DNA of 64,000 nt from Candidatus Fervidifonticultor quintus (GTDB taxonomy: Bacteria > Sysuimicrobiota > Sysuimicrobiia > Sysuimicrobiales > Humicultoraceae): positions 1 to 64,000 of the forward strand of contig JAVKIJ010000001.1 of NCBI GenBank assembly GCA_031459535.1, read 5' to 3'. Within the stretch, counting starts at the first letter, position 1; each line of letters starts with the position of its first letter. Made by a program: the position numbers and the translations under genes. Under the pieces are notes generated by a model, which worked only from the letters and a program-made list of their open reading frames with translations, searched no databases and was not told the DNA's origin. Below are positions 5,607 through 62,638 of the stretch, in pieces.

Positions 5607-5625
5607 GCGGGGTAACGTCCCGGCG

Positions 5626-36303: not shown

Positions 36304-36320
36304 ACGTTGTCAGCGCTCCC

Positions 36321-37745: not shown

Positions 37746-37809
37746 GATCCGCTCACCTCGAAGCACTTCACCTGATGTCGCGCCCCACTCTGCGCTCGAG
37801 ACGCCACCT

Positions 37810-38561: not shown

Positions 38562-38660
38562 GGATCGACCTCCAGCGCAGAGATGATGGCAGCCTCTTTC
38601 GGTATGTGCGCGCGGCCTTCCTTTCAGCGGCAGTACCGATGCCGGCGTTCATCGGAATTC

Positions 38661-38689
38661 TTGATGAGTCCGGCGGCCCACGGTAGAGT
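38661..38689 (+). promoter_or_regulatory. sigma70-type promoter
   Basis: TTGATG, 17-nt spacer, TAGAGT upstream of the ATG at 38736. Confidence 0.5.
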
Positions 38690-38735
38690 TGAGTCGAATT
38701 GTCCCCATTCCACCCGCAAAGGAGCGCTACCGTCT

Positions 38736-40097: not shown

Positions 40098-40166
40098 ACC
40101 CTGCGTGTGCCGGCGATAGAGTTGAACCAGCGCGACCCATCCGCTTTGCAGGAGACGACTGACATC

Positions 40167-41099: not shown

Positions 41100-41121
41100 G
41101 CACCGCGCCGTGAGGGGCCTC

Positions 41122-43732: not shown

Positions 43733-43756
43733 TGCGATCGCAGATCGGAGGACGCG

Positions 43757-44623
43757 ATGGCCATACTCGTTGATGAACACACCCGGGTGCTGGTGCAGGG
43801 CATCACGGGATACCAGGGCGAGTTCCACACGCGCCGGATGCTGGAGTTCGGCACCAAGGTCGTGGCCGGGCACCGGCCGGGCAAGGGTGGCCAGACGGTG
43901 GCCGGGGTGCCGGTGTTCGACACGGTCGCCGAAGCGGTGGCCCAGACAGGGGCCACGGCCTCGTGCATCTTCGTGCCGGCCCGGACCGCCAAGGACGCGG
44001 CCCTGGAAGCCATTGCCTCGCGCCTGAATCCCGTGGTGATCATCACCGAGCACATCCCGGTGCAGGATGCCATCGAGATCGTGGCTGCAGCCAAAGCATC
44101 CGGGGTCCACGTCGTCGGCCCCAACGGCCCGGGGCTGGCCTCGCCGGGCAGGTGCAAGATCGGCATCATGCCCAACCACCTCTTCACGCCGGGTCCGGTG
44201 GGACTGGTGTCGCGGAGCGGTACGCTCACCTACGAGATCGTGGCAGGTTTGACCGCGGCAGGGATCGGACAGAGCACGGCGCTGGGGTTGGGCGGCGATC
44301 CGGTCGTCGGCCTCAACTTCGTCGAAGCCATCACGATGTTCAACGACGACCCCGAGACCGAGGTCATGGTCATGGTGGGCGAGATCGGCGGCAGCGCCGA
44401 GGAGGAGGCCGCGCAGTTCGTGCGGACGTCGGTGAGAAAGCCGGTCGTGGGCTACATTGCCGGGCTCACGGCGCCGCCGGGCAAGCGGATGGGGCACGCC
44501 GGCGCGGTGATCTCCGGGACCGAGGGCACGGCGCAGGGGAAGATCAAGGCGATGGAGGCGGCGGGCATCACGGTGGTGGACCTGCCCGGCCGCGTGGCCG
44601 GCGCAGTCCGAGGACTCCTCTAG
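43757..44623 (+). CDS. sucD: succinyl-CoA synthetase alpha subunit
   Basis: VQGITG, GPN.PG, SRSGTLTYE, GKRMGHAGA. Confidence 0.96.
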   Translation: MAILVDEHTRVLVQGITGYQGEFHTRRMLEFGTKVVAGHRPGKGGQTVAGVPVFDTVAEAVAQTGATASCIFVPARTAKDAALEAIASRLNPVVIITEHIPVQDAIEIVAAAKASGVHVVGPNGPGLASPGRCKIGIMPNHLFTPGPVGLVSRSGTLTYEIVAGLTAAGIGQSTALGLGGDPVVGLNFVEAITMFNDDPETEVMVMVGEIGGSAEEEAAQFVRTSVRKPVVGYIAGLTAPPGKRMGHAGAVISGTEGTAQGKIKAMEAAGITVVDLPGRVAGAVRGLL

Positions 44624-47379: not shown

Positions 47380-48804
47380 GTGAGCGAGGATGTCCTGCCG
47401 CCGGCCGAGCCGTTCCGCGTCAAGATGGTCGAGCCGATCCGCCGACTGACCCGCCAGCAGCGCGTCCGGGCCCTGGAGGAGGCCCACTTCAACCTGTTCT
47501 TGCTCAAGTCCGAGGACGTCTACATCGACCTGCTGACCGACAGCGGCACCTCGGCGATGAGCGATCGCCAGTGGGGCGCGCTGATGGTCGGCGACGAGGC
47601 GTACGCCGGCAGCCGCAGCTTTTACCGGCTGCGAGAGGCCGTCGAGGACGTCCTGGGATTTCCCTACGTGATTCCGACCCACCAGGGCCGCGGGGCCGAG
47701 CACGTGCTGTTCACGGCCCTGGTGCAGCCCGGCCAGCACGTGATCGGCAACGTGCACTTCGACACCACGCGGGCCCACATCGAGCATCGCGGGGCCACGG
47801 CCCACGACCTGGCCGTGGAGGCGATCCACGATCCGCTGGATCCGGCGCCTTTCAAGGGCAACCTGGATGTCGAGCGGGCCGAAGCTCTCATCCGCCACGT
47901 GGGCCCCCGGGCCGTGGCGCTGATCCTGGTAACCGTGACCTGTAACACCGGCGGTGGCCAGCCTGTGGCCCTCTCGAACCTGAGGGACGTACGTGCGCTG
48001 GCCGACCGCTGGGGCATCCCGTTCTTCCTCGACGCCTGCCGCTTCGCCGAGAACGCCTATCTCATCCAGCAGCGCGAGCCCGGATATGCCGCCCGCCCGG
48101 TGGCGTCCATCGTCCGGGAGATGTGTGGCCTCGCCGACGGGTGTACCTTCAGCGCCAAGAAGGACGGCCTGGCCAACATCGGCGGGTTCATCGCGGTGCG
48201 CGACCCTACCCGCTACCGCCAGGTGTCCCCGTGGGCGGTGCTCTTCGAAGGGTTCCTGACCTACGGTGGTCTGGCGGGTCGGGATCTGGAGGCCATCGCC
48301 GTGGGTCTGCGCGAGGTGACCGATGAGGCCTATCTGGAGTGGCGCGTCGGCCAGGTCGCGCGCCTCGGCGAAGGGCTTCGGGCGGCGGGGGTGCCCATCG
48401 TGGAGCCCGTGGGCGGTCACGCCGTCTTCCTGGACGCCAGGCGCTTCCTGCCCCACATTCCGCAGTCGGCCTTTCCGGCGCAGGCGCTGGCCTGCGCCCT
48501 CTACGCCGACGGCGGGGTGCGCGGTGTGGAGATCGGCGGCGTCATGGCCGGCCGCGACCCGCAGACCGGTGCCGAGCGGCCGCCCCGGCTGGAGCTGGTG
48601 CGTCTGGCCGTGCCGCGGCGCGTCTACAGCGATGCGCACATGGCGGTGGTGGTAGCCACCGCGCGGCGCACGCTGGCCCGCCGCGCAGAGATCGGCGGAT
48701 TGCGGTTCGTCTACGAGCCGCCAGTCCTGCGCCACTTCACCGCCGAGTTCGCGCCGATCCCGCAGGCGGTGCCGGGGGACCTGCGGCAGGTGAAGCCCGC
48801 GTAG
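47380..48804 (+). CDS. tnaA: tryptophanase (beta-eliminating lyase family)
   Basis: EPFR.K.VE, IDLLTDSGT, SAKKDG; HFDTT and LRHFTA favour tryptophanase over tyrosine phenol-lyase (FTTT, LRFFTA). Confidence 0.82.
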   Translation: MSEDVLPPAEPFRVKMVEPIRRLTRQQRVRALEEAHFNLFLLKSEDVYIDLLTDSGTSAMSDRQWGALMVGDEAYAGSRSFYRLREAVEDVLGFPYVIPTHQGRGAEHVLFTALVQPGQHVIGNVHFDTTRAHIEHRGATAHDLAVEAIHDPLDPAPFKGNLDVERAEALIRHVGPRAVALILVTVTCNTGGGQPVALSNLRDVRALADRWGIPFFLDACRFAENAYLIQQREPGYAARPVASIVREMCGLADGCTFSAKKDGLANIGGFIAVRDPTRYRQVSPWAVLFEGFLTYGGLAGRDLEAIAVGLREVTDEAYLEWRVGQVARLGEGLRAAGVPIVEPVGGHAVFLDARRFLPHIPQSAFPAQALACALYADGGVRGVEIGGVMAGRDPQTGAERPPRLELVRLAVPRRVYSDAHMAVVVATARRTLARRAEIGGLRFVYEPPVLRHFTAEFAPIPQAVPGDLRQVKPA

Positions 48805-48955
48805 GATTCGCGCCGCCCGGCGCCGAACCAACCAGGGACTCGTGCAGGTCCAGCCGATCGGGACTCTCTGTTCCCCGGGGTGATATGGTGACGGCGCCGG
48901 GTGCCGGACCGTAGGAGGCGCCCGACGCTTCGGCCGACGTGCGCGAGGGACGGAC

Positions 48956-49315
48956 ATGCTGCTGGTTGACTGGCTCTACGTCGGGGTGTTCGTCGTGGTG
49001 GGTCTGCTCATGGCGGCCCTGCCGCTGGCGGTGGTCTGGCTGCTGGCACCCCGGGCCGACTATCCACAGAAGCGCACCACCTACGAGTCCGGCGTCGTGC
49101 CCTTCGGTCAGGCCTGGGCGCAGTTCAACGTGCGCTACTACCTGTTCTCGCTGGTCTTCGTCATCTTCGCGGTGGAAGTGATCTACCTGTATCCCTGGGC
49201 GATCGTCTTCCGCCAGATGGGCAGGTACGCGTTCTTTTCGATGGCGGTCTTCCTCGTCATCCTGTTCCTCGGGTTAGTCTACGCCTGGCGGAAGGGCGCG
49301 CTGGAGTGGTCATGA
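48956..49315 (+). CDS. nuoA: NADH-quinone oxidoreductase subunit A
   Basis: K..TYESG loop, RYY, LYPWA, YAWRKGALEW. Confidence 0.94.
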   Translation: MLLVDWLYVGVFVVVGLLMAALPLAVVWLLAPRADYPQKRTTYESGVVPFGQAWAQFNVRYYLFSLVFVIFAVEVIYLYPWAIVFRQMGRYAFFSMAVFLVILFLGLVYAWRKGALEWS

Positions 49316-50313
49316 GCTGGCCGGTAGAGATCCTCAAGGCCGTCGGGCTCGCCGTCCTGATGTTCACGTTCCTGGCCGTGGTCGCCGCCATGTTCGGCGT
49401 GCTGCTGGAGCGCAAGGTGGGCGGGTGGATCCAATCGCGGCTGGGGCCCAAGCACGTGGGCCCGCAGGGCCTGTTTCAGACCCTGGCGGACACCGTGAAG
49501 CTGCTGCAGAAAGAGCACATCGCGCCGCGCGCAGCCGACCTGGCCATCTTCAACACCGCGCCGCTCATCGTGGCCGTGGCGGGATTGATGAGCTGGATCG
49601 TCATTCCGTTCGGCACCCTGGGAAACCGGGTCCTGGTGGTCCGGGACCTGAACATCGGGATTCTGTTCTTCGCGGGCATGGCCTCCATGACCGTAGTGGG
49701 CATCCTGGCCGGCGGATGGTCGTCCAACAACAAGTACTCGCTGCTCGGCGGCCTGCGCAGCGCCTCCCAGATGGTGAGCTACGAGTTGCCGTTGGGGGTC
49801 GCCCTGGTGGCGGTGGCCATGGAGGCCGGGACGCTGTCCACCGTGGGCATCGTGCAGGCCCAGGGGGGCTGGCTGGGGTCGTTCCTCTTCCGGCAGTTTC
49901 CGGCGTTTGTCATCTTCCTGATCGCGGCCACCGCCGAGGTCAACCGGGTGCCGTTCGACCTACCCGAGGCGGAGAGCGAGCTGGTGGCCGGCTACTTCTC
50001 GGAGTACACCGGCATGCGCTTCGCCCTGTTCCAGTTGGGCGAGTATGCTGAGATGTTCGGGATGGCTGCCATGGCCACCACGCTCTTCCTCGGCGGCTGG
50101 AAGGGGCCGTTCGACACCGTAGCTGGCGGTCGCTTCGCCTTCCCGGTGGCCTGGTTCCTCATCAAGATGTACCTGGTGGTGTTCTTCCTCATGTGGGTGC
50201 GGTGGACGTACCCGCGCTACCGGCTCGATCAGCTCCTGAACCTGTCGTGGAAGGTCTTGCTCCCGGCGGGGTTGGTCTGGATCCTCATCACCGGATACCG
50301 GATCACCTTCTGA
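49312..50313 (+). CDS. nuoH: NADH-quinone oxidoreductase subunit H
   Basis: ERK....Q.RLGP, SNNKYSLLGGLR, PFDLPEAESELVAGY, PRYR.DQL. Confidence 0.95.
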   Translation: MSWPVEILKAVGLAVLMFTFLAVVAAMFGVLLERKVGGWIQSRLGPKHVGPQGLFQTLADTVKLLQKEHIAPRAADLAIFNTAPLIVAVAGLMSWIVIPFGTLGNRVLVVRDLNIGILFFAGMASMTVVGILAGGWSSNNKYSLLGGLRSASQMVSYELPLGVALVAVAMEAGTLSTVGIVQAQGGWLGSFLFRQFPAFVIFLIAATAEVNRVPFDLPEAESELVAGYFSEYTGMRFALFQLGEYAEMFGMAAMATTLFLGGWKGPFDTVAGGRFAFPVAWFLIKMYLVVFFLMWVRWTYPRYRLDQLLNLSWKVLLPAGLVWILITGYRITF

Positions 50314-50315
50314 CC

Positions 50316-50807
50316 ATGGGCCAGCTCGCGGCGTTCATCGCCCTCTCGATGATCACCCTGGCGGCGGCCGTAGTCGTGGTCGGTTCCGGCAACATCGTCC
50401 GCAGCGCCCTGTCGTTGATCCCCACGTTTCTGGGGATCACGGGGCTCTATATCCTGCTCCAGGCCGAGTTCGTGGCCGGCATCCAGGTGCTCATCTATGC
50501 GGGCGCCATCACCGTGCTGATCCTCTTCGTCATCATGCTCACCGAGCACGGATCGGGCATCCGCTTCAGACAGGTCACCGAGCAGGTGCCGTTGGGGATG
50601 ATCGTCGCCGGCGGGCTGGCCGCCTTCCTGGTTGCCACGCTGGCCACCACGCCCTGGGCGCTCTCCCCGGCCACCCTGCCACAGTACACGGCCCGCGGGG
50701 TCGGCACCACGTTGTTGACCAGCATGATCCTGGTCTTCGAGGTGACCAGCCTGGTGTTGCTGGTGGCGCTGATCGGCGCCGTGGTCATCGCGCGGCGAGA
50801 ACGCTAG
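50316..50807 (+). CDS. nuoJ: NADH-quinone oxidoreductase subunit J
   Basis: AEF....QVLIYAGAI.VL.LFVIML, FE..SL.LLVA.IGA. Confidence 0.93.
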   Translation: MGQLAAFIALSMITLAAAVVVVGSGNIVRSALSLIPTFLGITGLYILLQAEFVAGIQVLIYAGAITVLILFVIMLTEHGSGIRFRQVTEQVPLGMIVAGGLAAFLVATLATTPWALSPATLPQYTARGVGTTLLTSMILVFEVTSLVLLVALIGAVVIARRER

Positions 50808-50820
50808 GCGGGAGGGCTTC

Positions 50821-51132
50821 GTGCAGCTGGGTCTGACGCATTTCCTGGTCCTGAGTGCCCTGCTGTTCTGCCTGGGTCTGTATGGGGTCCTGACGCGGCG
50901 GAACGTGGTGGCCATCCTGATGGGCATCGAGTTGATGCTGAATGCGGCCAACATCAACCTGGTGGCCTTCAACAAGTACGTGGCCCCGGCGGCGCTCCAC
51001 GGGCAGGTCTTCGCCCTGGTGGTGATCACCCTGGCGGCGTGCGAAGCGGGCGTGGGCCTGGCGCTGGTCATGTCCGCGTACCGCAACCTGGAGACCGTCC
51101 ACGTGGACGAGATCAACATCATGAAATGGTAG
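50821..51132 (+). CDS. nuoK: NADH-quinone oxidoreductase subunit K
   Basis: RRN, IELMLNA.N.N, AACEA.VGLA. Confidence 0.95.
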   Translation: MQLGLTHFLVLSALLFCLGLYGVLTRRNVVAILMGIELMLNAANINLVAFNKYVAPAALHGQVFALVVITLAACEAGVGLALVMSAYRNLETVHVDEINIMKW

Positions 51133-51135
51133 CCG

Positions 51136-53079
51136 ATGCGTGAGCTGGCCTGGCTGATCCCGGTCTTCCCCTTCGTCGCCTTCTGGCTCATCGTCGCCCT
51201 GGGCCGGCGCGCACCCGGTGAGGGCGCCTACGTGGCCATGGCCGGCATCGGTCTGTCGGCGTTGCTCTCGCTGGGCATCTTGGGCGAGATGCTCTCCGGC
51301 GCCGCGCCGTACGAGGCGAACCTTCGGTGGATGCCGTTTGGCGCCACGCCGCTCGATCTCGGCATTCGCGTGGACAACCTGACCACCCTGATGCTGCTGG
51401 TAGTGACAGTGGTCGGGTCCATGATCTTCATCTACTCCATCGGATACATGCACGGTGATCCGCGCTACCCGCGGTTCTTCGCCTACATGTCCCTGTTCGC
51501 CGCCTCGATGCTGCTGCTGGTGCTGGCGAACAACCTGGTCTTTCTGTACGTGGGCTGGGAACTGGTGGGGCTGTGCTCGTACCTGCTGATCGGCTTCTAC
51601 TTCGAACGGCCGTCCGCGGCCCGGGCGTCGATGAAAGCCTTCGTCACCACCCGGGTCGGCGATTTCTTCATGTTCCTGGGCATCTTGCTCGTCTTCCTCA
51701 CCGTCGGCACCTTCCGGTTCGAGGAGATCTTCGCCAGCGTGCGCCAGGGTGCCCTGGACGCCCGGACGGTGGGCGGGTTGCCGCTGGTCACCGTGGCCGC
51801 CGTGCTGCTGTTTGGAGGCGCCGTGGGGAAGTCGGCCCAGCTCCCTCTGCACACGTGGCTGCCCGACGCGATGGAAGGCCCGACCCCGGTCTCGGCCCTG
51901 ATCCATGCCGCAACCATGGTCGCGGCCGGCGTCTACATGGTGGCCCGGCTGTATACGCTCTTCTTTCAGTCGGCGGGGCACGCGGCACTGACCGTGGTAG
52001 CGTGGATCGGCGGCGCCACGGCGCTTATGGCCGCCACCATTGCGGTGACCCAGGACGATATCAAGCGGGTGCTGGCCTACTCCACCATTAGCCAGCTGGG
52101 CCTGATGATGCTGGGCCTGGGCGTCCTGGGCTACACCGCGGGGATGTTCCACCTGATGACGCACGCCTTCTTCAAGGCCCTCCTCTTCCTGGGCGCTGGC
52201 AGCGTCATCCATGCCATGCACACCAACGACATCAAGGAGATGGGCGGCCTGGGCAAGGTCATGCCGTCCACCTACTGGACGTTTCTGATCGGGACCCTGG
52301 CCCTCTCTGGCGTGCCGCCGTTCGCCGGCTTCTGGAGCAAGGACGAGATCCTGCTGGAAGCGTACCACCACAATCCGGCGCTGTTTGCCCTGGGAGCGCT
52401 CACGTCGCTGCTGACCGCGTTCTACATGTTTCGGGTGATCTTCTACACATTTAGCGGCACGTTGCGCAGCCACCACGCGCACCCCCACGAGAGCCCGCCA
52501 GTGATGACGCGGCCGCTGTGGGTGTTGGCCATTTTCTCGGCGCTGGTGGGCCTGGTGGGCGCGCCATTCCTCGGAGCTCCGGTCGGCCACTTCATCACAT
52601 TTGAGGGCATCGAGCACATCCCGTTCAGCGTGCAGATGGCTCTGGCCTCCACGGCGATTGCCGGGGTCGGCATCCTGGCCGCAGCGGCCGTGTACTACTG
52701 GAAGATCGTGCCGTCCTCGGCGCTGCGGCAGGCGGCGGGGCCGCTGTTCACCCTGGTGTCGAACAAGTACTACGTGGACGAACTCTACGGCGCGGTCTTT
52801 GTGCGCCCGACGGTGGCCGTGGCGGGATTCCTGCGCAACTTCGACGTCTACGTGGTGGACCTGATCGTCAACCTGTTTGGGTTCGTGGGCGTGGGGCTGG
52901 CCCGCCTGTACCGCGCCTTCGACCTCTATGTGGTGGACGGCGTGGTGAATCTCGTGGGCTGGATGGCGAAGGCGGCGGGCGGGACGCTGCGCTACGTACA
53001 GACGGGTCGCGCGCAGAACTACCTGCTGGTCATTGCCCTGGGCGTGATCGTGCTGCTGGCGGCCGGCCTGTTCCGCTAG
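51136..53079 (+). CDS. nuoL: NADH-quinone oxidoreductase subunit L
   Basis: GWE.VGLCSYLLIGF, GKSAQ.PLH.WLPDAMEGPTPVSALIHAATMV, HAFFKALLFL. Confidence 0.95.
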   Translation: MRELAWLIPVFPFVAFWLIVALGRRAPGEGAYVAMAGIGLSALLSLGILGEMLSGAAPYEANLRWMPFGATPLDLGIRVDNLTTLMLLVVTVVGSMIFIYSIGYMHGDPRYPRFFAYMSLFAASMLLLVLANNLVFLYVGWELVGLCSYLLIGFYFERPSAARASMKAFVTTRVGDFFMFLGILLVFLTVGTFRFEEIFASVRQGALDARTVGGLPLVTVAAVLLFGGAVGKSAQLPLHTWLPDAMEGPTPVSALIHAATMVAAGVYMVARLYTLFFQSAGHAALTVVAWIGGATALMAATIAVTQDDIKRVLAYSTISQLGLMMLGLGVLGYTAGMFHLMTHAFFKALLFLGAGSVIHAMHTNDIKEMGGLGKVMPSTYWTFLIGTLALSGVPPFAGFWSKDEILLEAYHHNPALFALGALTSLLTAFYMFRVIFYTFSGTLRSHHAHPHESPPVMTRPLWVLAIFSALVGLVGAPFLGAPVGHFITFEGIEHIPFSVQMALASTAIAGVGILAAAAVYYWKIVPSSALRQAAGPLFTLVSNKYYVDELYGAVFVRPTVAVAGFLRNFDVYVVDLIVNLFGFVGVGLARLYRAFDLYVVDGVVNLVGWMAKAAGGTLRYVQTGRAQNYLLVIALGVIVLLAAGLFR

Positions 53080-53105
53080 CGGGGGGCAGAGGAGGACACC
53101 ACGGC

Positions 53106-54614
53106 ATGGATCGGTACCTGCTGACCATCACCACCTTCCTGCCGCTGCTCGGCGGAGTCATCATTCTGTTGATTCCCAAGGATCAGGAGCGCCAGATGCG
53201 CGAGGTGGCCCTGACCACCTCGGTGCTGACGTTCTTGCTCTCGCTGTTGCTGCTCGGGCCGTTCGAGATCGGGAAGACCGGGATGCAGCTGGTGGAGCGT
53301 TACGCCTGGATCCCCACCATCGGCATCAACTACCACCTGGGCGTGGATGGACTCAGCCTGCCGCTGGTCATCCTGACCACGCTGCTCAGCGTGGTTTCCA
53401 TCGTGTACTCGTGGCGGATCGACGTACGGCTGCGGGAGTACCTGTTCCTCTTCCTCCTGCTGGAAACGGGCATGCTGGGCGTGTTCGTGGCCCTGGACTT
53501 CTTTCTCTTCTATGTCTTCTGGGAGATCACGCTGGTCCCGATGTACTTTCTGATCGGCATCTGGGGCGGGCCACGCAAGGAGTACGCTGCCATCAAGTTC
53601 TTCCTCTACACATTGATCGGGTCCCTGGCTATGCTGCTGGCGATCCTGCTCCTCTACTTCAACGCCTCGCCGCGCACGTTCGGCATCCTGGACCTAATCC
53701 AGCAGCAGCCGCTGGCCCGCGCGCCTTTGCTGGCCGCGCTGGCATTCTGGGGATTCTTCCTGTCGTTCGCCATCAAGGTGCCCATGTGGCCCTTCCACAC
53801 CTGGCTGCCCGACGCCCATGTGGAGGCGCCGACGGCCGGCAGCGTGATCCTGGCCGGCATCCTGCTGAAGCTGGGCACCTACGGTTTCGTGCGGGTCAGC
53901 TTGCCGATGTTCCCCGAGACGTTCAAGCAGTACGCGTTCTTCATCGCGATCCTGGCCCTGCTGGGGATCACCTACGGCGCGCTGGTCGCCATGGCGCAGT
54001 CCGACCTGAAGAAGCTCGTGGCGTACTCCAGCGTCAACCACATGGGCTACGTGATGCTGGGCGTGTCCGCGGCTGCCGGCGCCGTGGGCGTGGCCGAGAA
54101 GGCCGCAGCCGCCACGGTGGCGCTCAACGGCGCCGTCTTCGAGATGGTGGCCCACGGGATCATCACCGGCGCCCTGTTCCTGATCGTGGGCGTGATCTAT
54201 GACTACCGGGCCCACGTGCGGGGGGTGAACGACTTCGGCGGATTGGGCGCCATCCTGCCCAAGTACACCGGCATCACCACCATGGCCATGCTGGCGTCGC
54301 TGGGCCTGCCGGGGCTGATGGGATTCGTGGCAGAGTTCTTGGTCTTCGTGGGGTCGTTCGGCGTCTTCCCTGAGCTCACCGTGATCGCCGTGACGGGTGT
54401 GATCTTCACCGCCGCCATGTTCCTCTGGACCATCCAGCGGATCTTCCTGGGGCCGAAGAACCCCAGGTGGGAGACCCTGCCCGACCTGGACAGACGCGAA
54501 GCCTGGTCGCTGATGCCCCTGGCCGCGCTCATGCTCATCTTCGGGATCTACCCGAAGCCGCTGCTGGACATCATCAACACCGCCATGACCGGCCTGGTCG
54601 CCGCGCTGAAGTAG
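53106..54614 (+). CDS. nuoM: NADH-quinone oxidoreductase subunit M
   Basis: FYVFWE, K.P..PFHTWLPDAHVEAPT, LLKLG.YG, AYSSV.HMG. Confidence 0.95.
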   Translation: MDRYLLTITTFLPLLGGVIILLIPKDQERQMREVALTTSVLTFLLSLLLLGPFEIGKTGMQLVERYAWIPTIGINYHLGVDGLSLPLVILTTLLSVVSIVYSWRIDVRLREYLFLFLLLETGMLGVFVALDFFLFYVFWEITLVPMYFLIGIWGGPRKEYAAIKFFLYTLIGSLAMLLAILLLYFNASPRTFGILDLIQQQPLARAPLLAALAFWGFFLSFAIKVPMWPFHTWLPDAHVEAPTAGSVILAGILLKLGTYGFVRVSLPMFPETFKQYAFFIAILALLGITYGALVAMAQSDLKKLVAYSSVNHMGYVMLGVSAAAGAVGVAEKAAAATVALNGAVFEMVAHGIITGALFLIVGVIYDYRAHVRGVNDFGGLGAILPKYTGITTMAMLASLGLPGLMGFVAEFLVFVGSFGVFPELTVIAVTGVIFTAAMFLWTIQRIFLGPKNPRWETLPDLDRREAWSLMPLAALMLIFGIYPKPLLDIINTAMTGLVAALK

Positions 54615-54623
54615 GGACCGCCG

Positions 54624-56066
54624 ATGCCGCTGCCGCCTGAGGATTTCTGGTCTATCGTCCCGGAACTGTGGCTGGCCGGGCTGGGGCTGGCCCTGCTCCT
54701 CCTCGATCTGGTCCTGCCAGCCGAGCGGAAGACGGCCGTGGGCTGGGCCGCAGTGGTCGGGCTGGCGTTGAGCCTGATCCCGATCTTCGGGATGCTGCAG
54801 ACGACGCCGCGGACGGTCTTCTTCAACACCTACGCAGTGGACGGGTTCGCCGTCTTCTTCAAGCTGATCGCGGTCGCCTCCACGATCCTGGTGATCCTCT
54901 CGGCGATGGACGTGGTGCGCGGGAGGACACAGTTCGAGGGCGAGCTGTACATCCTGCTCACGTTCACGGCTCTGGCACTGTGCCTGATGGCCGGCAGTGC
55001 CGACTTGATCCTGCTGGCCCTGTCCATCGAGTTCGTCAGCCTCTGCTCGTACGTCATGGCCGGGTACTTCAAGGCCGACCCCAAGAGCAACGAGGCCGGT
55101 ATCAAGTACTTCCTGTTCGGCGCCAGCGCATCGGCGGTGATGATCTACGGATTCTCGATCCTCTACGGGCTGACGGGCCAGACGAGTCTGTACGCCATTG
55201 CCGACGCGGTGCGGACCGCGCCCCAGCCGGCGTTGATCGCAGCGCTGGCGCTGGCGCTGGCGGGCTTCGGGTTCAAGATCTCGATGGTGCCCTTCCACCA
55301 GTGGACGCCGGACGTCTACGAGGGCGCCCCCACGCCGGTGGCGGCCTACCTGTCGGTGGCGTCCAAGGCGGCGGGCTTCGCGGCGCTGGTGCGGCTGCTG
55401 GTGGTCGCCGTGGCGCCCAGCGCCCTGGACTGGGTGACGCTGGTCGCCGGTCTGTCGGCGCTCACCATGACCGTCGGCAACCTGCTGGCGCTGCCCCAGC
55501 GCAACATCAAGCGCATGCTGGCGTACTCCAGCATCTCGCATGCCGGGTTCCTGTTGATGGGCGTGGCCGCCTACCGGGGCGACTTCGGTGCGCCGGGGTT
55601 GCTCATCTACATCCTGGCGTATACCTTCACGAACCTGGGCGCGTTCTTCGTAGCCGTGGTCGTGGGCCAGCGTCTGGCCTCCGACGAGATCCCGGACTAC
55701 GCCGGGCTGGCCCAGCGGGCGCCTGGGCTGGCGCTCCTGATGGCGCTGTTCATGCTCTCGCTCACCGGTATTCCGCCCACCGCAGGGTTTTTCGGCAAGT
55801 TCTACGTCTTCGGGGCCGCGGTCAGCAATCAGTTGTTGTGGCTGGCCCTCGTCGGGGTCACGAACAGCGTGGTGGCTCTGTACTACTATGTAGGCGTCAT
55901 CCGGGTGATGTACCTGCTGCCGGCGCCCTCACCTGAGGGCGTGCGCGAACCAGCAGCCCTGCGCCTGGCCCTGGGTATCGCCGCGCTGGGCGTGCTGGTC
56001 ATGGGCCTCTTCCCTCAGCCGTTCATCGGTCTGGTCACCGCTGCGGCGCTGCTGCTACGGCTGTAG
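54624..56066 (+). CDS. nuoN: NADH-quinone oxidoreductase subunit N
   Basis: EAG.KYF..G, FK...VPFHQW.PDVYEGAPTP, KRMLAYSSI.HAG, GIPP.AGF.GK. Confidence 0.95.
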   Translation: MPLPPEDFWSIVPELWLAGLGLALLLLDLVLPAERKTAVGWAAVVGLALSLIPIFGMLQTTPRTVFFNTYAVDGFAVFFKLIAVASTILVILSAMDVVRGRTQFEGELYILLTFTALALCLMAGSADLILLALSIEFVSLCSYVMAGYFKADPKSNEAGIKYFLFGASASAVMIYGFSILYGLTGQTSLYAIADAVRTAPQPALIAALALALAGFGFKISMVPFHQWTPDVYEGAPTPVAAYLSVASKAAGFAALVRLLVVAVAPSALDWVTLVAGLSALTMTVGNLLALPQRNIKRMLAYSSISHAGFLLMGVAAYRGDFGAPGLLIYILAYTFTNLGAFFVAVVVGQRLASDEIPDYAGLAQRAPGLALLMALFMLSLTGIPPTAGFFGKFYVFGAAVSNQLLWLALVGVTNSVVALYYYVGVIRVMYLLPAPSPEGVREPAALRLALGIAALGVLVMGLFPQPFIGLVTAAALLLRL

Positions 56067-56142
56067 CGCCCCGCACCGGAGGACGCTTCGCGTCGCCAGC
56101 ATGGGATCGCGCAAACCCGCGTCGGTGCTGCTTTTCGGTGCC

Positions 56143-56171
56143 TTGACGTGGGGTAGGGGCTCTGCTATCTT
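56143..56171 (+). promoter_or_regulatory. sigma70-type promoter of the V/A-ATPase operon
   Basis: TTGACG, 17-nt spacer, TATCTT with an upstream TG (extended -10). Confidence 0.65.
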
Positions 56172-56240
56172 CACGATGTGTGCCCCCAGGGCCCACGTCC
56201 TGGGGGTTTCGTGTGACGAATTCCCGAGGGGCTCAAACGC

Positions 56241-56594
56241 ATGGAGGCGGAGAAGGCAGCGCACGGGAGTGGCCACCACGCCAACGACAACCTCCTTCAG
56301 ATCATCGCCGCAAAGGAAAAGGAACTCGAGATGCAGCTCGCCGCCGCCCGGGCCGAAGCCGCCGCTCTCGTCGCCGCGGCCCGCGCCGAGGCCGAGCGGA
56401 TCGCGCGGGAGGGCCAGGAGCAGGCGACCCGTCTGATCCGCGAGTACCAAGAGCGCATCAGCGCCGCCACCGCCCGGATCCAGCGTGAGGCCGAGGCCAG
56501 AGCGGCCACCGAGGTGGAGGCCCTCCGCCGGCAGGCTACGGCGCGGGCCCAGGCGGCCGTGCGGACCGTCGTCGAGCGGGTCATCAAAGGTTGA
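56241..56594 (+). CDS. V/A-type ATP synthase peripheral stalk subunit G/H
   Basis: Ala/Glu/Arg coiled coil; first gene of the operon, as in Thermus. Confidence 0.75.
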   Translation: MEAEKAAHGSGHHANDNLLQIIAAKEKELEMQLAAARAEAAALVAAARAEAERIAREGQEQATRLIREYQERISAATARIQREAEARAATEVEALRRQATARAQAAVRTVVERVIKG

Positions 56595-56598
56595 TCCC

Positions 56599-58566
56599 AT
56601 GATTGTAGCCATGTCCCGGGTGCTGGTCGTCGGCCCCAAGCGGCTGCTCGGTGATGTCCTGCGGGAAGTACAGCGCGTGGGCGCCGTCCACGTGGAGCAC
56701 CTGGAGACAGCCAGCGAGGGCATTGGGGCGCTCAAGCTCGACGAACGGGCGGCGGCCGAGCAGGGCCGGTTGGAGGCCATGCGCACGCGCATCGACGGCC
56801 TGCTGGGGTTGCTCCCTCACGTGTCCGGGCCCGACCTGCGGCAGCGGCCCGGATCCGACAGCCCTTCCGGCGACAGCCTCGAGGACCTCGAAGCCGGCAT
56901 CTCGGCCGTCGAGGCCGAAGTCCACGAGCTGAGCCGCCGTCGTCTCGAGGCCGAAGACGAGCTTGAACTCATCCACACCTATGAAGGTGCCGTCCGGGCC
57001 CTCTCTCCGCTGCTCGATGCGCTGGCCGGCAGCAGGGCGCTGGAGACCATCGGCTTCATTCTTCGCGGCAAGGACCTCACGGTGGTCACCGCCATCCGCA
57101 ATCAGCTCCGCGAGCTCACCGAGGGGCGCGTCGAGGTCGTGAGCCGGACCATCGAGGAGGGCAAGATCGGCGTCGTCGTGGCGTTCCTGCGGCGTGACGG
57201 CGAGACCGTGCGGGGGTTCCTGACGCGTGCCGGTGTGGCCGAGCTCCGCCTGCCAGCACGCTACGCCGAGTACGGGCCGGCGGAGGCCGTCCGGCTCATG
57301 GCCCAGCGCCGCGCCGCGCTCCCCGGGGAACTGTCGAGTATCGCGTCTGCGCTGGCCGACGCCGCTCGCCGGCACCGCCCCTGGTTGACGGCGGTGCGCG
57401 GCAGGATCGCCGACCACCTGGCCCGGCTGCACGTGGCGTCGCAGTTGGGCGCCTCGCGGTACGTCTTCATCCTGCACGGCTGGGCTCCCGCGGCCAAGGT
57501 GCCCGGGTTGCGTGAGGCGCTCCGTCGCCGGTTCGGCCAGGAAGTCGTCATCGAGGACGCCCCGGTCGATCCCCACCGCACGAGAGAGGTGCCGGTGCTG
57601 CTGGACAACCCGCCCCTCCTGCGGCCCTTCCAGCGCCTGCTGGGCCTGTTCAAGCCGCCCCGGTACGGTACCCTGGATCCGACGCTCTACCTGGCAATCT
57701 TCTTTCCCATTTTCGTCGGCGTCGTGATCGGGGACGTGGCCTACGGCGCCCTGCTCTTCGTGTTTGGCTGGTGGCTGCGCAACAAGGGCCGCCGAGGCGA
57801 GACCTGGGACATCGCGCTGGGGCCCATCCGGCTGGGCATGCGCGTAGAGCCCGAGGTCATCGCCGACCTGTCGTGGATCGTCCGGATCATGGCAATCTGG
57901 GCCATGCTCTTCGGTGTGCTCTACCTGGAGGTGTTCGGCAACCTCATCGAGCACCACCTCGGGCTCCACCCCGTCTTCAACCGGGTGGAGCTGGCCACGT
58001 CGTTCTTTCGTCTCACCGTGGCGCTCGGTATCGTTCAGGTGACCCTGGGCAACATCCTGCATCTGATCCTGGCGCTGCGGCACAGGCATGCCGGCGGTGT
58101 CTTCGAGTCCCTGGCGCTCATCTGCGGTGTCGTGGGGCTCCTGGCCGTGCTGGGCGCCATGAGCAACCAGCTCCCGAGGACATTCTTCACACCGGGGGTG
58201 GCGCTCCTGGCCGCGTTTCTGCTGTTCTTCCTCGTCGGGTTTGTCTTCAACCGGTTCGCGCCCATGTGGTTGCTCGAGGCCGTCTCGGGGATGGGCAATG
58301 TGCTCTCCTATGCGCGGTTGTTCGGTGTCGGGCTGGCCGCGGCGGTGCTGGCCAACGTCTCCAACCAGCTCGGGGGGATGATGGGCCCGGTCTGGATCGG
58401 CGTGTTCGTGGGGATCGTCATCCAAATATTCTTCTTCGTCTTCACGTTGCCCGGCCACATCATCCAGCCCGCCCGTCTCAACTGGGTCGAATTTCTCACC
58501 AAGGTGAAGTACCACGACGAGACCGGCAACTCATACCGCCCGCTGAAGACCACAGGAGGTGACTAG
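56599..58566 (+). CDS. ntpI: V/A-type ATP synthase subunit I (a)
   Basis: P.YG..DPT, GD..YG, LSYAR, RL.WVEF. Confidence 0.92.
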   Translation: MIVAMSRVLVVGPKRLLGDVLREVQRVGAVHVEHLETASEGIGALKLDERAAAEQGRLEAMRTRIDGLLGLLPHVSGPDLRQRPGSDSPSGDSLEDLEAGISAVEAEVHELSRRRLEAEDELELIHTYEGAVRALSPLLDALAGSRALETIGFILRGKDLTVVTAIRNQLRELTEGRVEVVSRTIEEGKIGVVVAFLRRDGETVRGFLTRAGVAELRLPARYAEYGPAEAVRLMAQRRAALPGELSSIASALADAARRHRPWLTAVRGRIADHLARLHVASQLGASRYVFILHGWAPAAKVPGLREALRRRFGQEVVIEDAPVDPHRTREVPVLLDNPPLLRPFQRLLGLFKPPRYGTLDPTLYLAIFFPIFVGVVIGDVAYGALLFVFGWWLRNKGRRGETWDIALGPIRLGMRVEPEVIADLSWIVRIMAIWAMLFGVLYLEVFGNLIEHHLGLHPVFNRVELATSFFRLTVALGIVQVTLGNILHLILALRHRHAGGVFESLALICGVVGLLAVLGAMSNQLPRTFFTPGVALLAAFLLFFLVGFVFNRFAPMWLLEAVSGMGNVLSYARLFGVGLAAAVLANVSNQLGGMMGPVWIGVFVGIVIQIFFFVFTLPGHIIQPARLNWVEFLTKVKYHDETGNSYRPLKTTGGD

Positions 58567-58567
58567 G

Positions 58568-58894
58568 TTGAAGAAGACTCTGTTCGTATGCGCCGCCCTG
58601 GCGGCAGTCCTGCTGTTCGGCACGACGGGCGTCCTGGCAGCCGAGGCACCGCCCGCCGAAGCCGCGAAGGGCCTGACGCTGGCTCACGGTCTGCTGGCTC
58701 TGGCCGCGGCGCTGGCGGTGGCCTTCGGCGCTGCCGGCACCGCGTGGGCGCAGTCCCGGATCGGTTCGGCTGCGGCTGGCGCGATGGCCGAGCGCCCGGA
58801 GATCGGCGGGCAGATGCTGATCTTCCTGGTGCTGCCCGAGACGATGATCATCCTCGGCTTCGTGATCGCGTTCTTCATCCTCGGCAAGATTTAG
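58568..58894 (+). CDS. ntpK: V/A-type ATP synthase subunit K (c, proteolipid)
   Basis: AQ.RIG.A..G..AE, LPET; TTG start after AGGAGG; N-terminal signal-like extension. Confidence 0.92.
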   Translation: MKKTLFVCAALAAVLLFGTTGVLAAEAPPAEAAKGLTLAHGLLALAAALAVAFGAAGTAWAQSRIGSAAAGAMAERPEIGGQMLIFLVLPETMIILGFVIAFFILGKI

Positions 58895-58904
58895 TACGGC
58901 GCCG

Positions 58905-59489
58905 GTGGCCACCAGCTCTGAACTCATCACGCTGCTCGAGCGCGAAGCGGCGGCGGAACGCGAGCAGATCCTCAGCGACGCCAGGGCGCAGGCCGAACGA
59001 ATCCTGGCCGACGCGAGGCGCGAGGCCGAGGCGTACGTGGCCGCCACGCGCGATCGCCTGGCTGGCGAGGAGAAGGCGGCGCTGGTCAAGGCGCATAGCA
59101 CCGCGGCGCTGCGGGCATCCTCCATGGTCCTCCAGGCCAAGGAGCAGGAGATCGCCCGGGTCTTTACCACCGCCGAAGCCGATCTGGCGGCGTTCAACCG
59201 GGATCAGACCCGGTATCCCCAGGCGCTCCTCGCGTTCATAGAGGAGGGCTTGCAGGGGTTCCCGGCGCACGCGGTGGTGACGGTCAACCCCGCCGACCAG
59301 GCAGTGGTCCACGATCTGGTGCGCCTGCGGGGATGGCAGGTGACGGTCCGGGCCGATCCCAGCGTCTGGGGCGGCGCGCGGATCATGTCTCCGGACGGAC
59401 GCTTCATGGTTACCAACACTTTGGCATCCCGCCTCGAGCGTGCCAAGCCGGCGCTGGCTGCAGAAGTGGCGAAGATCCTTTGGGAGTGA
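58905..59489 (+). CDS. ntpE: V/A-type ATP synthase subunit E
   Basis: N-terminal coiled coil, GG....S.DG...V.NTL..RL, C-terminal ILW. Confidence 0.88.
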   Translation: MATSSELITLLEREAAAEREQILSDARAQAERILADARREAEAYVAATRDRLAGEEKAALVKAHSTAALRASSMVLQAKEQEIARVFTTAEADLAAFNRDQTRYPQALLAFIEEGLQGFPAHAVVTVNPADQAVVHDLVRLRGWQVTVRADPSVWGGARIMSPDGRFMVTNTLASRLERAKPALAAEVAKILWE

Positions 59490-59501
59490 CGCTCGAGCTC
59501 C

Positions 59502-60536
59502 ATGCCGGATTTCCCCTACATTAACGCCAGGGTGCGCGCCATGCGCAGTCGCCTGTTGAGCGCGGCTCAGCTGGAGGAACTGCTGGCGACGCCGTCGCTG
59601 GCTGCGTTCCAGCATGCCCTGGCCGCGACCCCCTATGGCGATGATCTCCAGCAGGCTCAAACGCGCTACCAGGGGGTGCGCGCCGTCGACGAGGCCCTGG
59701 CCCGCAATCTCCAGCGCACAACGCGCAAGATCCTGGAGTTTGCCGACGGGCTGCCGCAGGTACTCATCACGGTGCTCCTCCTGCGGTGGGACCTGGCCAA
59801 CCTGCGCGCGGTCGCCCGTGGCAAGCACGCCGGCCGGTCACCGGACGACATCGCCGAGGCGTTGATGCCTGCTGGAACCCTGGGCGAGGCGGTCCTGCGC
59901 GAGATGGTGGCTTCCCCGGACATGAGCGGCATCGTCGGCACCCTGGAGGCGTTGAACCACCCCTTCACCGCGGCCATGGCGGAGGCGCTCGCCGCGTATG
60001 GCGAGGCCCGCGACCTCGCTGCGCTGGAGTTGCGGCTGGATCGCGCGTATGCTGAGGTGGGGCTGGGGCGGACCGCAGGCCTCGGTGCCGATGCTCGGGT
60101 GCTGCGGTGGGTGCTGCAGACCGAGATCGATGTCACGAACATCAAGACGGCGCTGCGGCTGGCGGCCGTCGGGAATCTGGATGAAGAGCGCCGGTTGGCG
60201 CTGTTCATCCCCGGGGGATCGGTGCTCTCGCCAGAGTTGTTCCTGGAACTCTCTGCCCTCGCCACTCAGGCCAGGACCTGGCGGGTGGTGAGGGCAGCAG
60301 GGTTCCCGATCGGTGACACACCTACGGATCTGGTGGCGTTCGAGCGCCGGATCGACCTGGCGCTGACCAGGGCCATGGTCCGTCGCTACACTCACGGTGA
60401 CCCGCTGGGGCTGGACATCGTCATGGGGTATCTGACCATGAAGTCGGTGGAGGTCGCCAACATTCGGTTGATCGCCCGCGCCAAACTCCTTAACTTGCCG
60501 CGGGAGCGAGCCAGAGCGGAGATGGTCCTTGTTTAG
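59502..60536 (+). CDS. ntpC: V/A-type ATP synthase subunit C (d)
   Basis: F.Y.NARVR....RLL, D..N, E..N.RLIAR. Confidence 0.88.
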   Translation: MPDFPYINARVRAMRSRLLSAAQLEELLATPSLAAFQHALAATPYGDDLQQAQTRYQGVRAVDEALARNLQRTTRKILEFADGLPQVLITVLLLRWDLANLRAVARGKHAGRSPDDIAEALMPAGTLGEAVLREMVASPDMSGIVGTLEALNHPFTAAMAEALAAYGEARDLAALELRLDRAYAEVGLGRTAGLGADARVLRWVLQTEIDVTNIKTALRLAAVGNLDEERRLALFIPGGSVLSPELFLELSALATQARTWRVVRAAGFPIGDTPTDLVAFERRIDLALTRAMVRRYTHGDPLGLDIVMGYLTMKSVEVANIRLIARAKLLNLPRERARAEMVLV

Positions 60537-60846
60537 GTTTGCGGTGATCACCGACAGCGAGTCCGCCACCGGCTTCCGCCTGGCCGGCGCCGAGGTCCGC
60601 GAAGCGTCCACGCCACAGGAGGCGCTGGAGCACCTGCGCCACTTCATGGCACTGGACTATGGGTTGGTGGCGATCAACGAAGCGCTGCTGGAGGGCACCG
60701 AGGCGGAGCGGGCACGCCTGATGCGCGGTCGCGACCTACCCATCGTCGTGCCATTTCCGGCGCCGCAGGCTCATATTGAGCGTGGCGAGGCCTACATCGC
60801 GCGCCTGGTCAAGGAGCACATCGGGTTCTACGTGAGGCTGCGCTAG
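60529..60846 (+). CDS. ntpF: V/A-type ATP synthase subunit F
   Basis: AVI.D.E.A.GFRLAG, C-terminal IGF. Confidence 0.9.
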   Translation: MFRFAVITDSESATGFRLAGAEVREASTPQEALEHLRHFMALDYGLVAINEALLEGTEAERARLMRGRDLPIVVPFPAPQAHIERGEAYIARLVKEHIGFYVRLR

Positions 60847-60873
60847 CGGGACGGGTCCATGGGAGGGGCAGTC

Positions 60874-62634: not shown

Positions 62635-62638
62635 GTCC

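Follow-up and report, generated by a model that had tools for sequence, protein, structure and literature searches.

The window (the whole stretch of DNA analysed, 64,000 nucleotides) belongs to a MAG of the genus Ca. Fervidifonticultor, Ca. Sysuimicrobiota, which consists of 138 contigs, is 88.9% complete and has an estimated contamination of 5.2%. On its forward strand, the window harbours seven intact and tightly packed genes, nuoA-H-J-K-L-M-N (48956-56066), assigned with Pfam and NCBIfam to the membrane arm of complex I. The cluster is preceded by a gene encoding a beta-eliminating lyase (47380-48804) and an intergenic region of 151 nt (48805-48955), where a promoter is presumed and a scan with the sigma-70 consensus did not detect any site. 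The gene nuoA (48956-49315) encodes a protein of 119 aa with three TM helices (PF00507, 3.7e-35), nuoH (49312-50313) one of 333 aa (PF00146, 4.9e-117; NF004741, 340.7 against a cut-off of 305), nuoJ (50316-50807) one of 163 aa (PF00499, 8.3e-33), and nuoK (50821-51132) one of 103 aa (PF00420; NF004322, 135.7 against 128). The three antiporter-like subunits are encoded by nuoL (51136-53079; 647 aa with a C-terminal lateral helix and a last TM; TIGR01974, 661 against 407.5), nuoM (53106-54614; 502 aa; TIGR01972, 583.5 against 263.8), and nuoN (54624-56066; 480 aa; TIGR01770, 402.2 against 332.6). All seven subunits pass the Pfam gathering scores, and NuoH, NuoK, NuoL, NuoM, and NuoN also pass the NCBIfam cut-offs; NuoA and NuoJ match Nuo models only, but under the equivalog cut-offs.

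A preliminary description of this DNA had reported the seven membrane genes in canonical relative order without any hydrophilic nuo gene, and both points hold, as there is no NuoB-, C-, D-, E-, F-, G- or I-like ORF within or adjoining the cluster. The junctions are also as described there: the stop of nuoA and the start of nuoH overlap in ATGA (49312-49315), and 2 nt lie between the nuoH stop TGA (50311-50313) and the nuoJ start ATG (50316). The loops TYESG of NuoA and PFDLPEAESEL of NuoH, which the same description had pointed out, are both present.

The residues that line the proton path of complex I comprise a Glu in TM5, a Lys in TM7 and TM8, and a Lys or Glu in TM12 of NuoL, NuoM, and NuoN, together with two Glu in NuoK and an acidic loop in NuoH. 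In alignments with the orthologues of five families, the paralogue from contig C95 and an outgroup, NuoH conserves the PFDLPEAESELVAGY loop and the Glu of SYE(L/I)P, NuoJ the TM3 Tyr and the TM5 Glu, both invariant, and NuoK its two invariant membrane Glu. NuoL conserves the TM5 Glu, the TM7 Lys, the Lys of HAFFK, and the Lys-Asp of SKD, and its C-terminal extension, with a last hydrophobic segment at residues 624-647, aligns with that of the NuoL encoded on C95. NuoM possesses the TM5 Glu, TM7 Lys, TM8 Lys, and TM12 Glu, and NuoN the TM5 Glu and the Lys of TM7, TM8, and TM12. In NuoA, the YESG loop is retained, as is the invariant Glu of F-x-V-E, while the first acidic position of this motif, located in TM2, is an Ala in the host genome, which is the sole deviation among the canonical charged residues checked in the arm. 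This Ala could speak for a degenerate relic that has lost pumping. Such decay is nevertheless very improbable, since the canonical charges examined in the other subunits (NuoH, J, K, L, M, and N) are all invariant across families. Among 46 loci, of which some share a genome, the deviating NuoA position is occupied by D (30 loci), E (7) or A (9), so that it is acidic in 37, and the second Glu is invariant. In addition, most relatives showed no loss of pump residues, and identities of 60-90% are maintained throughout the phylum. The seven genes are best read as encoding, for a second isoform of complex I, a complete membrane domain that is predicted to be functional, where NuoH and NuoA would form the base of the quinone channel, NuoJ and NuoK the connectors, and NuoL, NuoM, and NuoN three antiporter-like pumps.

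Downstream of the arm lies an operon for a V/A-type ATPase (56241-64000, forward strand), detected with Pfam. It comprises atpG (56241-56594), atpI (56599-58566), atpK (about 58559-58894), atpE (58905-59489), atpC (59502-60536), atpF (60529-60846), atpA (60859-62634), and atpB (from 62603 to past the end of the window). Two further ORFs, at 56101 and 56180, are artefacts in the wrong frame, and the first real gene of the ATPase is atpG (PF16999). The position directly upstream that the preliminary description gave for the arm is therefore corrected: 174 nt (56067-56240) separate the nuoN stop from atpG. This gap contains one sigma-70-like match (56143-56171), which is not significant alone, given that one site was seen in a 10-kb scan with 1.0 +/- 1.0 expected. 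The ATPase operon follows nuoN with the same gene order and strand in all eleven loci reaching that far, which belong to the five families f1, f2, f4, f5, and f7. The linkage of arm and ATPase in these complete loci seems to be a new, if modest, point.

The genome-wide search and module count that the preliminary description had called for revealed exactly two membrane arms and two quinone modules (Q-modules) in the profile searches of this 88.9% complete MAG. NuoH is encoded at two loci, on C1 (the arm of the window) and on C95, whereas NuoD and NuoC are each encoded on C66 and C95; two Nuo-type NuoB were found, plus two hydrogenase small subunits. All 14 genes of a complete nuoA-N operon lie on contig C95 (A, D, E, F, G, H, I, J, K, L, and M by Pfam, with B, C, and N also matched). 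The eight PF00361 proteins are distributed as three on C1, three on C95, and two in an Mrp operon on C53. This Mrp antiporter shares the antiporter-like PF00361 subunits with the arm, but possesses MrpA with MbhD/MbhE/MnhB domains, MrpF, and MrpG, and lacks NuoH and NuoA. The arm itself is not an Mrp antiporter, as it has NuoH, NuoA, and NuoJ, and Pfam did not find MnhB, MrpF or MrpG domains in the cluster. Likewise, an assignment to group 4 [NiFe] hydrogenases, Mbx or Fpo was rejected, because no hydrogenase-type large subunit, FpoF or FpoO is encoded beside the membrane genes.

The second Q-module is encoded on C66 in the order nuoB-nuoD-nuoI-nuoC, with gaps of 20 nt and 10 nt followed by a TGATG overlap, and all four products score above the NCBIfam Nuo cut-offs. 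In the translations, NuoB carries the cysteine motifs CCxxE, GSCxxCGG, and GCPP, which we take to be the ligands of cluster N2, and NuoI two CxxCxxCxxxCP motifs, presumably for two 4Fe-4S clusters. NuoD possesses the motifs GPQHPSTHG and DRxMDY, which we assume to hold the His and Tyr of the quinone site at the positions where NiFe cysteines would stand. The C66 NuoD lacks about 28 positions of the Pfam profile (168-195), whereas the C95 NuoD matches the profile in one piece. In tblastn, the arm subunits are 40% (A), 47% (H), 43% (K), 46% (L), 45% (M), and 49% (N) identical to those of C95, and the C66 subunits 58% (B), 47% (C), 49% (D), and 37% (I). The divergence from the C95 paralogues is therefore about equal for the arm and the Q-module. 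The split set is paralogous to the C95 operon in the eleven shared subunits, with 37-58% identity for the ten matched by tblastn; NuoJ gave no tblastn match and was identified on C95 through Pfam. Unlike the split set, the C95 operon is contiguous and includes NuoE, NuoF, and NuoG.

Dedicated NuoE, NuoF or NuoG for the arm were not found, as PF01512 occurs at only two loci genome-wide, the C95 operon and C57. On C57, the NuoF-like gene is flanked by a NuoE-fused flavoprotein and the alpha subunit of a formate dehydrogenase, next to folD, and is part of a cluster for a soluble formate dehydrogenase. Sets of the group-4 hydrogenase, Fpo or Mbx type were also missing genome-wide, with only two PF00346 and two PF00146 loci detected; both PF00346 loci pass the NuoD models TIGR01962 or NF004739, and the Fpo models score far under their cut-off. 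These results bear on the two options of the preliminary description, a split operon or a stand-alone platform for ion translocation, to which different or interchangeable soluble modules for redox chemistry would dock. The latter could be favoured by the transcriptional separation of the arm from any Q-module, by the retained NuoH and NuoA loops that contact such a module, by the arm-only operons published for Salinispora and Nitrosococcus, and by the presence of two Q-modules as potential competitors for the arm. It gained no support here, and we consider it unlikely, because arms and Q-modules tally two to two, no large or small subunit of a group-4 hydrogenase, Fpo or Mbx was detected beyond those counted above, the spare NuoE/F genes sit in the formate dehydrogenase and folate cluster, and nuoBDIC would be left without a NuoH/NuoA partner. 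Since the genome is 88.9% complete, a further redox module may remain. The split operon is the option that stood, with nuoB-D-I-C on C66 as a single complementary cluster, and with arm and Q-module both inherited phylum-wide with congruent divergence; this is the outcome that the preliminary description had named as marking an ordinary split operon.

An arm-type NuoH (59-90% identity) was found in 91 of the 94 genomes of the phylum, and the three genomes without it are 84%, 73%, and 68% complete. A C66-type NuoD (69-95% identity, the top value from a contig-end fragment) was present in 36 of 40 relatives. The order B-D-I-C is complete in 28 of the 29 loci of relatives, the remaining one being cut by a contig end. 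The layout A-H-(J)-K-L occurs in 28 of 29 loci (26 of 27 without the unpublished genomes G022 and G013), and the 29th stops after nuoH. None of the relatives' arm loci includes B, C, D or I, where the absence of nuoI from the 29 loci is deduced from the lack of a NuoI match and a gap of about 500 nt between nuoH and nuoK. With a NuoJ query included, the same arm layout was found in all sixteen further loci. Four of the 40 relatives possess the arm without a detected nuoBDIC (G021, 92% complete; G026, 89%; G023, 76%; G029, 72%), and G002 (84% complete) possesses nuoBDIC without a detected arm; these unmatched halves are most simply explained as assembly gaps. Pairwise distances of NuoH and NuoD in 21 genomes were correlated (Mantel r 0.94, reached by none of 2000 permutations), which indicates congruence and not partnership, as any two vertically inherited genes score high.

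In the genome G012 (97% complete, four contigs), a single contig of 3.15 Mb carries the arm at 0.468 Mb, nuoA-N at 2.014-2.020 Mb, and nuoBDIC at 2.197 Mb. The two halves are hence at least 1.4 Mb apart on this contig, and exactly two NuoH and two NuoD loci were found in this genome. With 138 contigs and 5.2% estimated contamination in the MAG of the window, the hydrophilic genes might have been lost by misassembly, or C66 might be foreign to the genome. We regard such an artefact as next to impossible, because both layouts are found again in dozens of genomes that were assembled independently, G012 carries both clusters on one contig, and the GC contents of C1 (0.678) and C66 (0.685) are alike. 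Moreover, Logan contigs of DNA runs, which may be the MAG's own source, bridge the nuoA/nuoH junction and the nuoN/atpG gap without differences. The preliminary description had also considered misassembly at the A/H and H/J junctions; this is countered by the bridged A/H junction and by the recurrence of the layout in relatives, the H/J junction being bridged by none of the listed Logan contigs.

Alternatively, in a swap of isoforms, the peripheral arm of the 14-subunit enzyme could use the arm of the window in place of its own membrane domain, with nuoBDIC serving something else, for example a downstream molybdoenzyme. Indeed, a Mo enzyme of the sulfite oxidase family follows nuoC on the same strand in the host genome and in 8 of 12 loci of relatives. 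However, it is missing in the other four loci, and its Mo domain, with a Tat-like RREFL after about five TM helices, would be periplasmic, whereas NuoBDIC is cytoplasmic. Considering also that NuoB, NuoD, and NuoI retain all the features of a quinone module, which require NuoH, and that the C95 operon already has a complete arm, this arrangement appears highly unlikely.

C1 and C66 most likely encode, in two separate clusters, the subunits of an 11-subunit "headless" complex I, beside the 14-subunit enzyme; a complementary cluster without NuoEFG implies an enzyme of the 11-subunit kind. The interpretation given in the preliminary description is supported in part: the arm reads as the membrane half of a second complex I whose genes are split in the ordinary way, rather than as a pump that stands alone. 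The products of C1 and C66 would assemble together, with C66 supplying NuoB (cluster N2), NuoD (quinone site), NuoI (two 4Fe-4S clusters), and NuoC, and with NuoEFG taking no part. This predicted enzyme would work alongside the classical 14-subunit NADH dehydrogenase of C95. Most likely it would translocate protons in a reaction coupled to the transfer of electrons between menaquinone and a donor of low potential, or it may run in reverse and supply CO2 fixation with reduced ferredoxin. The electron donor is probably ferredoxin, by analogy with cyanobacterial NDH-1; no known NDH-1 ferredoxin-docking subunit is encoded beside the arm or the C66 cluster. Headless Nuo enzymes have been interpreted as ferredoxin-dependent in the account of PMC13040438, and ferredoxin-producing enzymes are described for the family of the host (PMC11604079). 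There is a slim chance that synthesis and regulation of the arm are shared with the V/A-ATP synthase in a "proton circuit" unit, and that the arm is served by either of the two peripheral arms of the cell, the NADH-linked or the ferredoxin-linked one, according to conditions. If true, the clean phylum-wide division of arm and Q-module would reflect real modularity.

Arm-only nuo operons are already known from the literature. Partial NDH-1 operons of this type are described as "partial 2" in Salinispora, with counterparts in Streptomyces and Kocuria (PMC3314556, PMC6676996), and as NuoAHJKLLMN (Noc0474-0481) in Nitrosococcus oceani (PMC3772326). As here, a seven- or eight-gene operon of A/H/J/K/L/M/N only is reported beside a complete nuoA-N. 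In the descriptions compared, the authors treat the Salinispora and Nitrosococcus arms as an ion pump alone and name no second Q-module, whereas a matching nuoBDIC exists here. An orphan module of that type was rejected for the arm, given that nuoBDIC is present and conserved.

Headless enzymes with NuoABCDHIJKLMN and without NuoEFG are described for Moorella thermoacetica (PMC13040438) and Desulfurivibrio dismutans (PMC12142623); cyanobacterial NDH-1 is of the same kind, and these enzymes were surveyed by Moparthi and Hagerhall in 2011 (PMC3144371). Similar to them, the split set includes the same eleven core subunits with NuoEFG beside neither cluster, and the pump residues, N2 cysteines, and quinone-site motifs are intact. 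In contrast to the examples in the papers compared, which are presented as one cluster, it forms two clean clusters at least 1.4 Mb apart (G012), the Q-module reads B-D-I-C and not B-C-D...I, and the arm is fixed beside the V/A-ATPase operon. The clean split with its odd B-D-I-C order seems to be new, although modest. The outgroup operons L076 and L077 (44-47% identical) are contiguous without E/F/G between D and H, reading A-B-C-D-H-I and A-B-C-D-H-I-J-K-L, respectively.

The genome of Candidatus Fervidifonticultor quintus harbours a gene cluster that encodes only the membrane subunits of complex I (hereafter the arm). All seven genes lie on the plus strand of the window, namely nuoA (48956-49315), nuoH (49312-50313), nuoJ (50316-50807), nuoK (50821-51132), nuoL (51136-53079), nuoM (53106-54614) and nuoN (54624-56066), and each was identified in the ORF listing, with Pfam and NCBIfam, and in the raw sequence. 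The nuoA stop and the nuoH start share the ATGA at 49312-49315, two bases separate the nuoH stop from the nuoJ start, and the remaining gaps between arm genes measure 3-26 nt. With the same four sources, no genes for NuoB, C, D, E, F, G or I were found within or adjoining the cluster, and the preliminary description of an arm-only cluster of seven genes with tight junctions was correct. The 5′ neighbours, according to Pfam, are rapZ, a CofD/YvcK-like gene and a beta-eliminating lyase. Also 5′ of the arm, genes of the TCA type are present at 34573-44623, including an SdhA/FrdA-like flavoprotein, a class II fumarase, a malate/lactate dehydrogenase and both succinyl-CoA ligase subunits. The window further possesses, at 5100-15000, a region of lower GC content (0.63 vs 0.68) with a glycine/sarcosine/betaine-reductase-type cluster, located chiefly at 9139-14018 on the plus strand. 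This cluster encodes component-B subunits, a GrdA domain and a GrdB-like selenoprotein (PF07355, 1.6e-129 with TGA read as selenocysteine), and contains an Rfam SECIS_4 element at 10228-10265.

Arm-only operons have been described in other bacteria. The sources report a 'partial 2' NDH-1 operon of this type in Salinispora, with counterparts in Streptomyces and Kocuria (PMC3314556, PMC6676996), and a NuoAHJKLLMN set in Nitrosococcus oceani (PMC3772326). Neither nuo genes nor complex I appear in the main text of the Sysuimicrobiota papers PMC11604079 and PMC11962464, the supplements of which may list the genes.

The preliminary description had offered two readings of the cluster, a split operon or a stand-alone arm docking other redox modules, and had proposed a whole-genome search for the soluble subunits. 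This family search was carried out on the 3.1-Mb metagenome-assembled genome (MAG), which consists of 138 contigs with 88.9% completeness and 5.2% contamination. Two NuoH loci (on the window's contig, C1, and on contig C95) were found, against two NuoD and two NuoC loci (both on C95 and C66) and four NuoB-like loci, two of which are Nuo-type (C95 and C66) and two hydrogenase small subunits (C99 and C77). A single-query NuoH scan of a wider collection of genome contigs, extending beyond this MAG, gave six loci. Contig C95 carries a complete 14-gene nuoA-N operon. Eight antiporter-like PF00361 loci were detected, three on C1, three on C95 and two on C53; the last two belong to a separate Mrp antiporter cluster (fused MrpA/B, MrpD, MrpF and MrpG). 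No group-4 hydrogenase, Mbx or Fpo set turned up in the whole-genome family searches. The stand-alone arm with exchangeable redox partners, which the missing soluble genes had suggested, is unsupported by these searches and was rejected on the gene counts, which removes a tempting but wrong reading as a free-standing complex I pump.

NuoF-like proteins are encoded at two loci, on C95 and C57. The C57 gene is flanked by a NuoE-fused flavoprotein and a formate dehydrogenase alpha subunit, with folD and a cyclodeaminase adjoining, and because of these neighbours we assign it to a soluble formate dehydrogenase. The locus (L102, C57 22000-36701) encodes HdrA-like and HdrD-like proteins, the cyclodeaminase, FolD, a GltD/NfnB-like flavoprotein-NuoE fusion, NuoF and formate dehydrogenase alpha. 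The last is split between locus positions 10735 and 10748, with a probable in-frame stop that is possibly a selenocysteine codon.

The genes complementary to the arm, which the split-operon reading placed elsewhere in the genome, are located on the minus strand of contig C66 (locus L009) and all passed the NCBIfam cut-offs. They are nuoB (4265-4834), nuoD (3141-4244), nuoI (2654-3130) and nuoC (2043-2654), separated by 20 nt, 10 nt and finally a TGATG overlap of the nuoI stop and the nuoC start. The order B-D-I-C is unusual, and a literature search found no paper on a nuoB-D-I-C cluster under that name. In translation, NuoB carries the N2-cluster cysteines, NuoD the GPQHPSTHG and DRGMDY quinone-site motifs, and NuoI two CxxCxxCxxxCP motifs, all of which we take to have their usual meaning. 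With 367 aa, the C66 NuoD is a short form; the Pfam profile matched it in two pieces, without positions 168-195, unlike the C95 NuoD, which was matched in one piece. It matches end to end the 366-position NCBIfam NuoD model, FpoD, and the large subunits of Mbx and MBH in the PDB. A short NuoD is no general mark of headless enzymes (11-subunit complex I without NuoEFG), because the cyanobacterial NdhH, which belongs to a headless enzyme, aligns as the classical form does.

Located 3′ of nuoC on the same strand is a gene for a sulfite-oxidase-family molybdoenzyme of 536 aa (L009 316-1926, minus strand), which is also present in 8 of 12 loci of relatives. The C66 protein is an odd fusion, with about five N-terminal transmembrane helices followed by a Tat-like RREFL motif. 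Since its molybdenum domain should be periplasmic, we consider it a neighbour and not a subunit.

Both halves are conserved in the phylum, Ca. Sysuimicrobiota (ex CSP1-3). Among 94 species genomes, which represent one order and seven families, arm-type NuoH was present in 91 (59-90% identity), and the three genomes without it are 84%, 73% and 68% complete. A second NuoH, of the 14-subunit type (47-55% identity), was found in nearly all of the 94. Synteny in relatives, another check that the preliminary description had named, was consistent: 28 of 29 loci contain nuoA and nuoH followed, after a gap of roughly 500 nt, by nuoK and nuoL, the 29th stopping after nuoH. In this count nuoJ was not scored and the gap stands in its place; in 16 of 16 further loci, nuoJ follows nuoH. 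NuoB, C, D and I had no match in the 29 arm loci. The same layout across relatives rules out misassembly at the arm junctions.

NuoD of the C66 type was detected in 36 of 40 relatives with 69-95% identity, the highest value being that of a contig-end fragment. The four genomes in which it was not found are G021 (92% complete), G023 (76%), G026 (89%) and G029 (72%). The order B-D-I-C was complete in 28 of 29 loci, the remaining one being interrupted where its contig stops. Both layout counts include two unpublished genomes (G022 and G013) and amount to 26/27 each without them. Genome G012 (97% complete, 4 contigs) possesses exactly two NuoH and two NuoD loci, and on a single 3.15-Mb contig the arm maps to 0.468 Mb, the 14-gene operon to 2.014-2.020 Mb and nuoBDIC to 2.197 Mb. 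Because both halves lie far apart on one contig, the split is real, spans at least 1.4 Mb, and is old. Scattered complex I genes are also known from cyanobacteria, where the ndh genes are dispersed in the genome.

Pairwise distances of arm NuoH and C66-type NuoD in 21 genomes correlate with r 0.94, a value as high being reached in 0 of 2000 permutations. This shows congruent vertical inheritance of the two halves, a correlation that by itself does not prove partnership. Both halves are about equally distant from the C95 paralogues, with tblastn identities of 40-49% for arm subunits and 37-58% for Q-module (NuoB/C/D/I) subunits. Of two outgroup operons, that of a Deltaproteobacteria MAG (L076) has the order A-B-C-D-H-I and that of an unclassified MAG (L077) A-B-C-D-H-I-J-K-L, both without E/F/G between D and H; their identity of 44-47% is not above that to the genome's own C95 paralogues (47-49%).

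Each arm subunit was aligned with orthologues of five phylum families, the C95 paralogue and one outgroup. The residues scored for conservation in this alignment are those regarded as functionally important in the structural literature. NuoK retains both membrane Glu, NuoJ the Tyr and Glu, and NuoH the acidic PFDLPEAESELVAGY loop and the other invariant charges. NuoM and NuoN possess the TM5 Glu, TM7 Lys, TM8 Lys and TM12 Lys or Glu, and NuoL the Glu, Lys, Lys, Lys-Asp series together with the C-terminal lateral extension. The sole deviation is in the F-D-V-E motif of NuoA, where Ala replaces the first acidic residue; among 46 loci, some of which share a genome, 30 have D there, 7 have E and 9 have A, and the second Glu is invariant. 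As judged from the sequence, the retained residues rule out a degenerate relic. Arm-type NuoH of family f2 (e.g. L084, genome G031) has a partly hydrophobic insertion of about 60-70 residues before the last helices, where matches split at query 266/278. In locus L089 (genome G006), nuoM was matched at 5436-6216 in two short pieces only, vs full length in other relatives, and may be truncated or disrupted.

The C66 cluster and the congruent divergence of NuoH and NuoD support the split-operon reading. In the simplest account, the C1 arm and the C66 Q-module would together form a headless complex I of 11 subunits, alongside the classical NADH enzyme. Headless enzymes are described as widespread (PMC3144371, PMC12142623) and are usually interpreted, on the model of cyanobacterial NDH-1, as ferredoxin:quinone oxidoreductases (PMC13040438). 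Humicultoraceae, the family of this organism, are reported with ferredoxin-reducing hydrogenases and with Wood-Ljungdahl or reductive glycine genes (PMC11604079). We infer the electron donor and the direction of operation: running forward, the enzyme would conserve energy from reduced ferredoxin, and in reverse it would spend proton-motive force to supply ferredoxin for CO2 fixation. The uncultured Sysuimicrobiota of hot springs and soil would then have a headless 11-subunit isoform of complex I in addition to the classical NADH enzyme. For a lineage that also possesses hydrogenases, formate dehydrogenase and genes of the reductive glycine or Wood-Ljungdahl pathways, a proton pump coupled to ferredoxin, or the same pump in reverse, would play a central part in the energy balance.

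Genes for a V/A-type ATPase are present 3′ of the arm. The preliminary description placed them directly downstream, which needs a small correction, as 174 nt separate nuoN from the first gene, atpG (56241-56594, PF16999). It is followed by atpI (from 56599) and then K, E, C, F, A and B, as assigned with Pfam. Two ORFs considered as the small ATPase gene, 56101-56436 and 56180-56488, are wrong-frame artefacts. The ATPase genes follow nuoN on the same strand and in the same order in 11 of 11 loci of sufficient length, from families f1, f2, f4, f5 and f7; a twelfth, outside this count, stops at a contig end. In genome G077 the atpI match fell below the 38% identity filter, and there is room for the gene. 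The clean separation of arm and Q-module, the B-D-I-C order and this fixed synteny are minor new details, the latter two being small checkable oddities and no novel type of system. Scanning for promoters and terminators gave no signal exceeding shuffles, and this includes one sigma-70-like match in the nuoN-atpG gap. RNA-library contigs of run X4, which are no proof of transcription, cover parts of nuoL, nuoN, atpG/I and atpE/C, and none of them bridges nuoN to atpG. Because a family search found no F-type gamma subunit in the 88.9% complete MAG, the organism probably has no ATP synthase other than the V/A enzyme. In two relatives the match to the ATPase B subunit is broken by about 0.5 kb (L083, G077, ~14479-16377) and about 1.5 kb (L089, G006, ~14638-17574) of unmatched sequence, and these breaks may be inteins.
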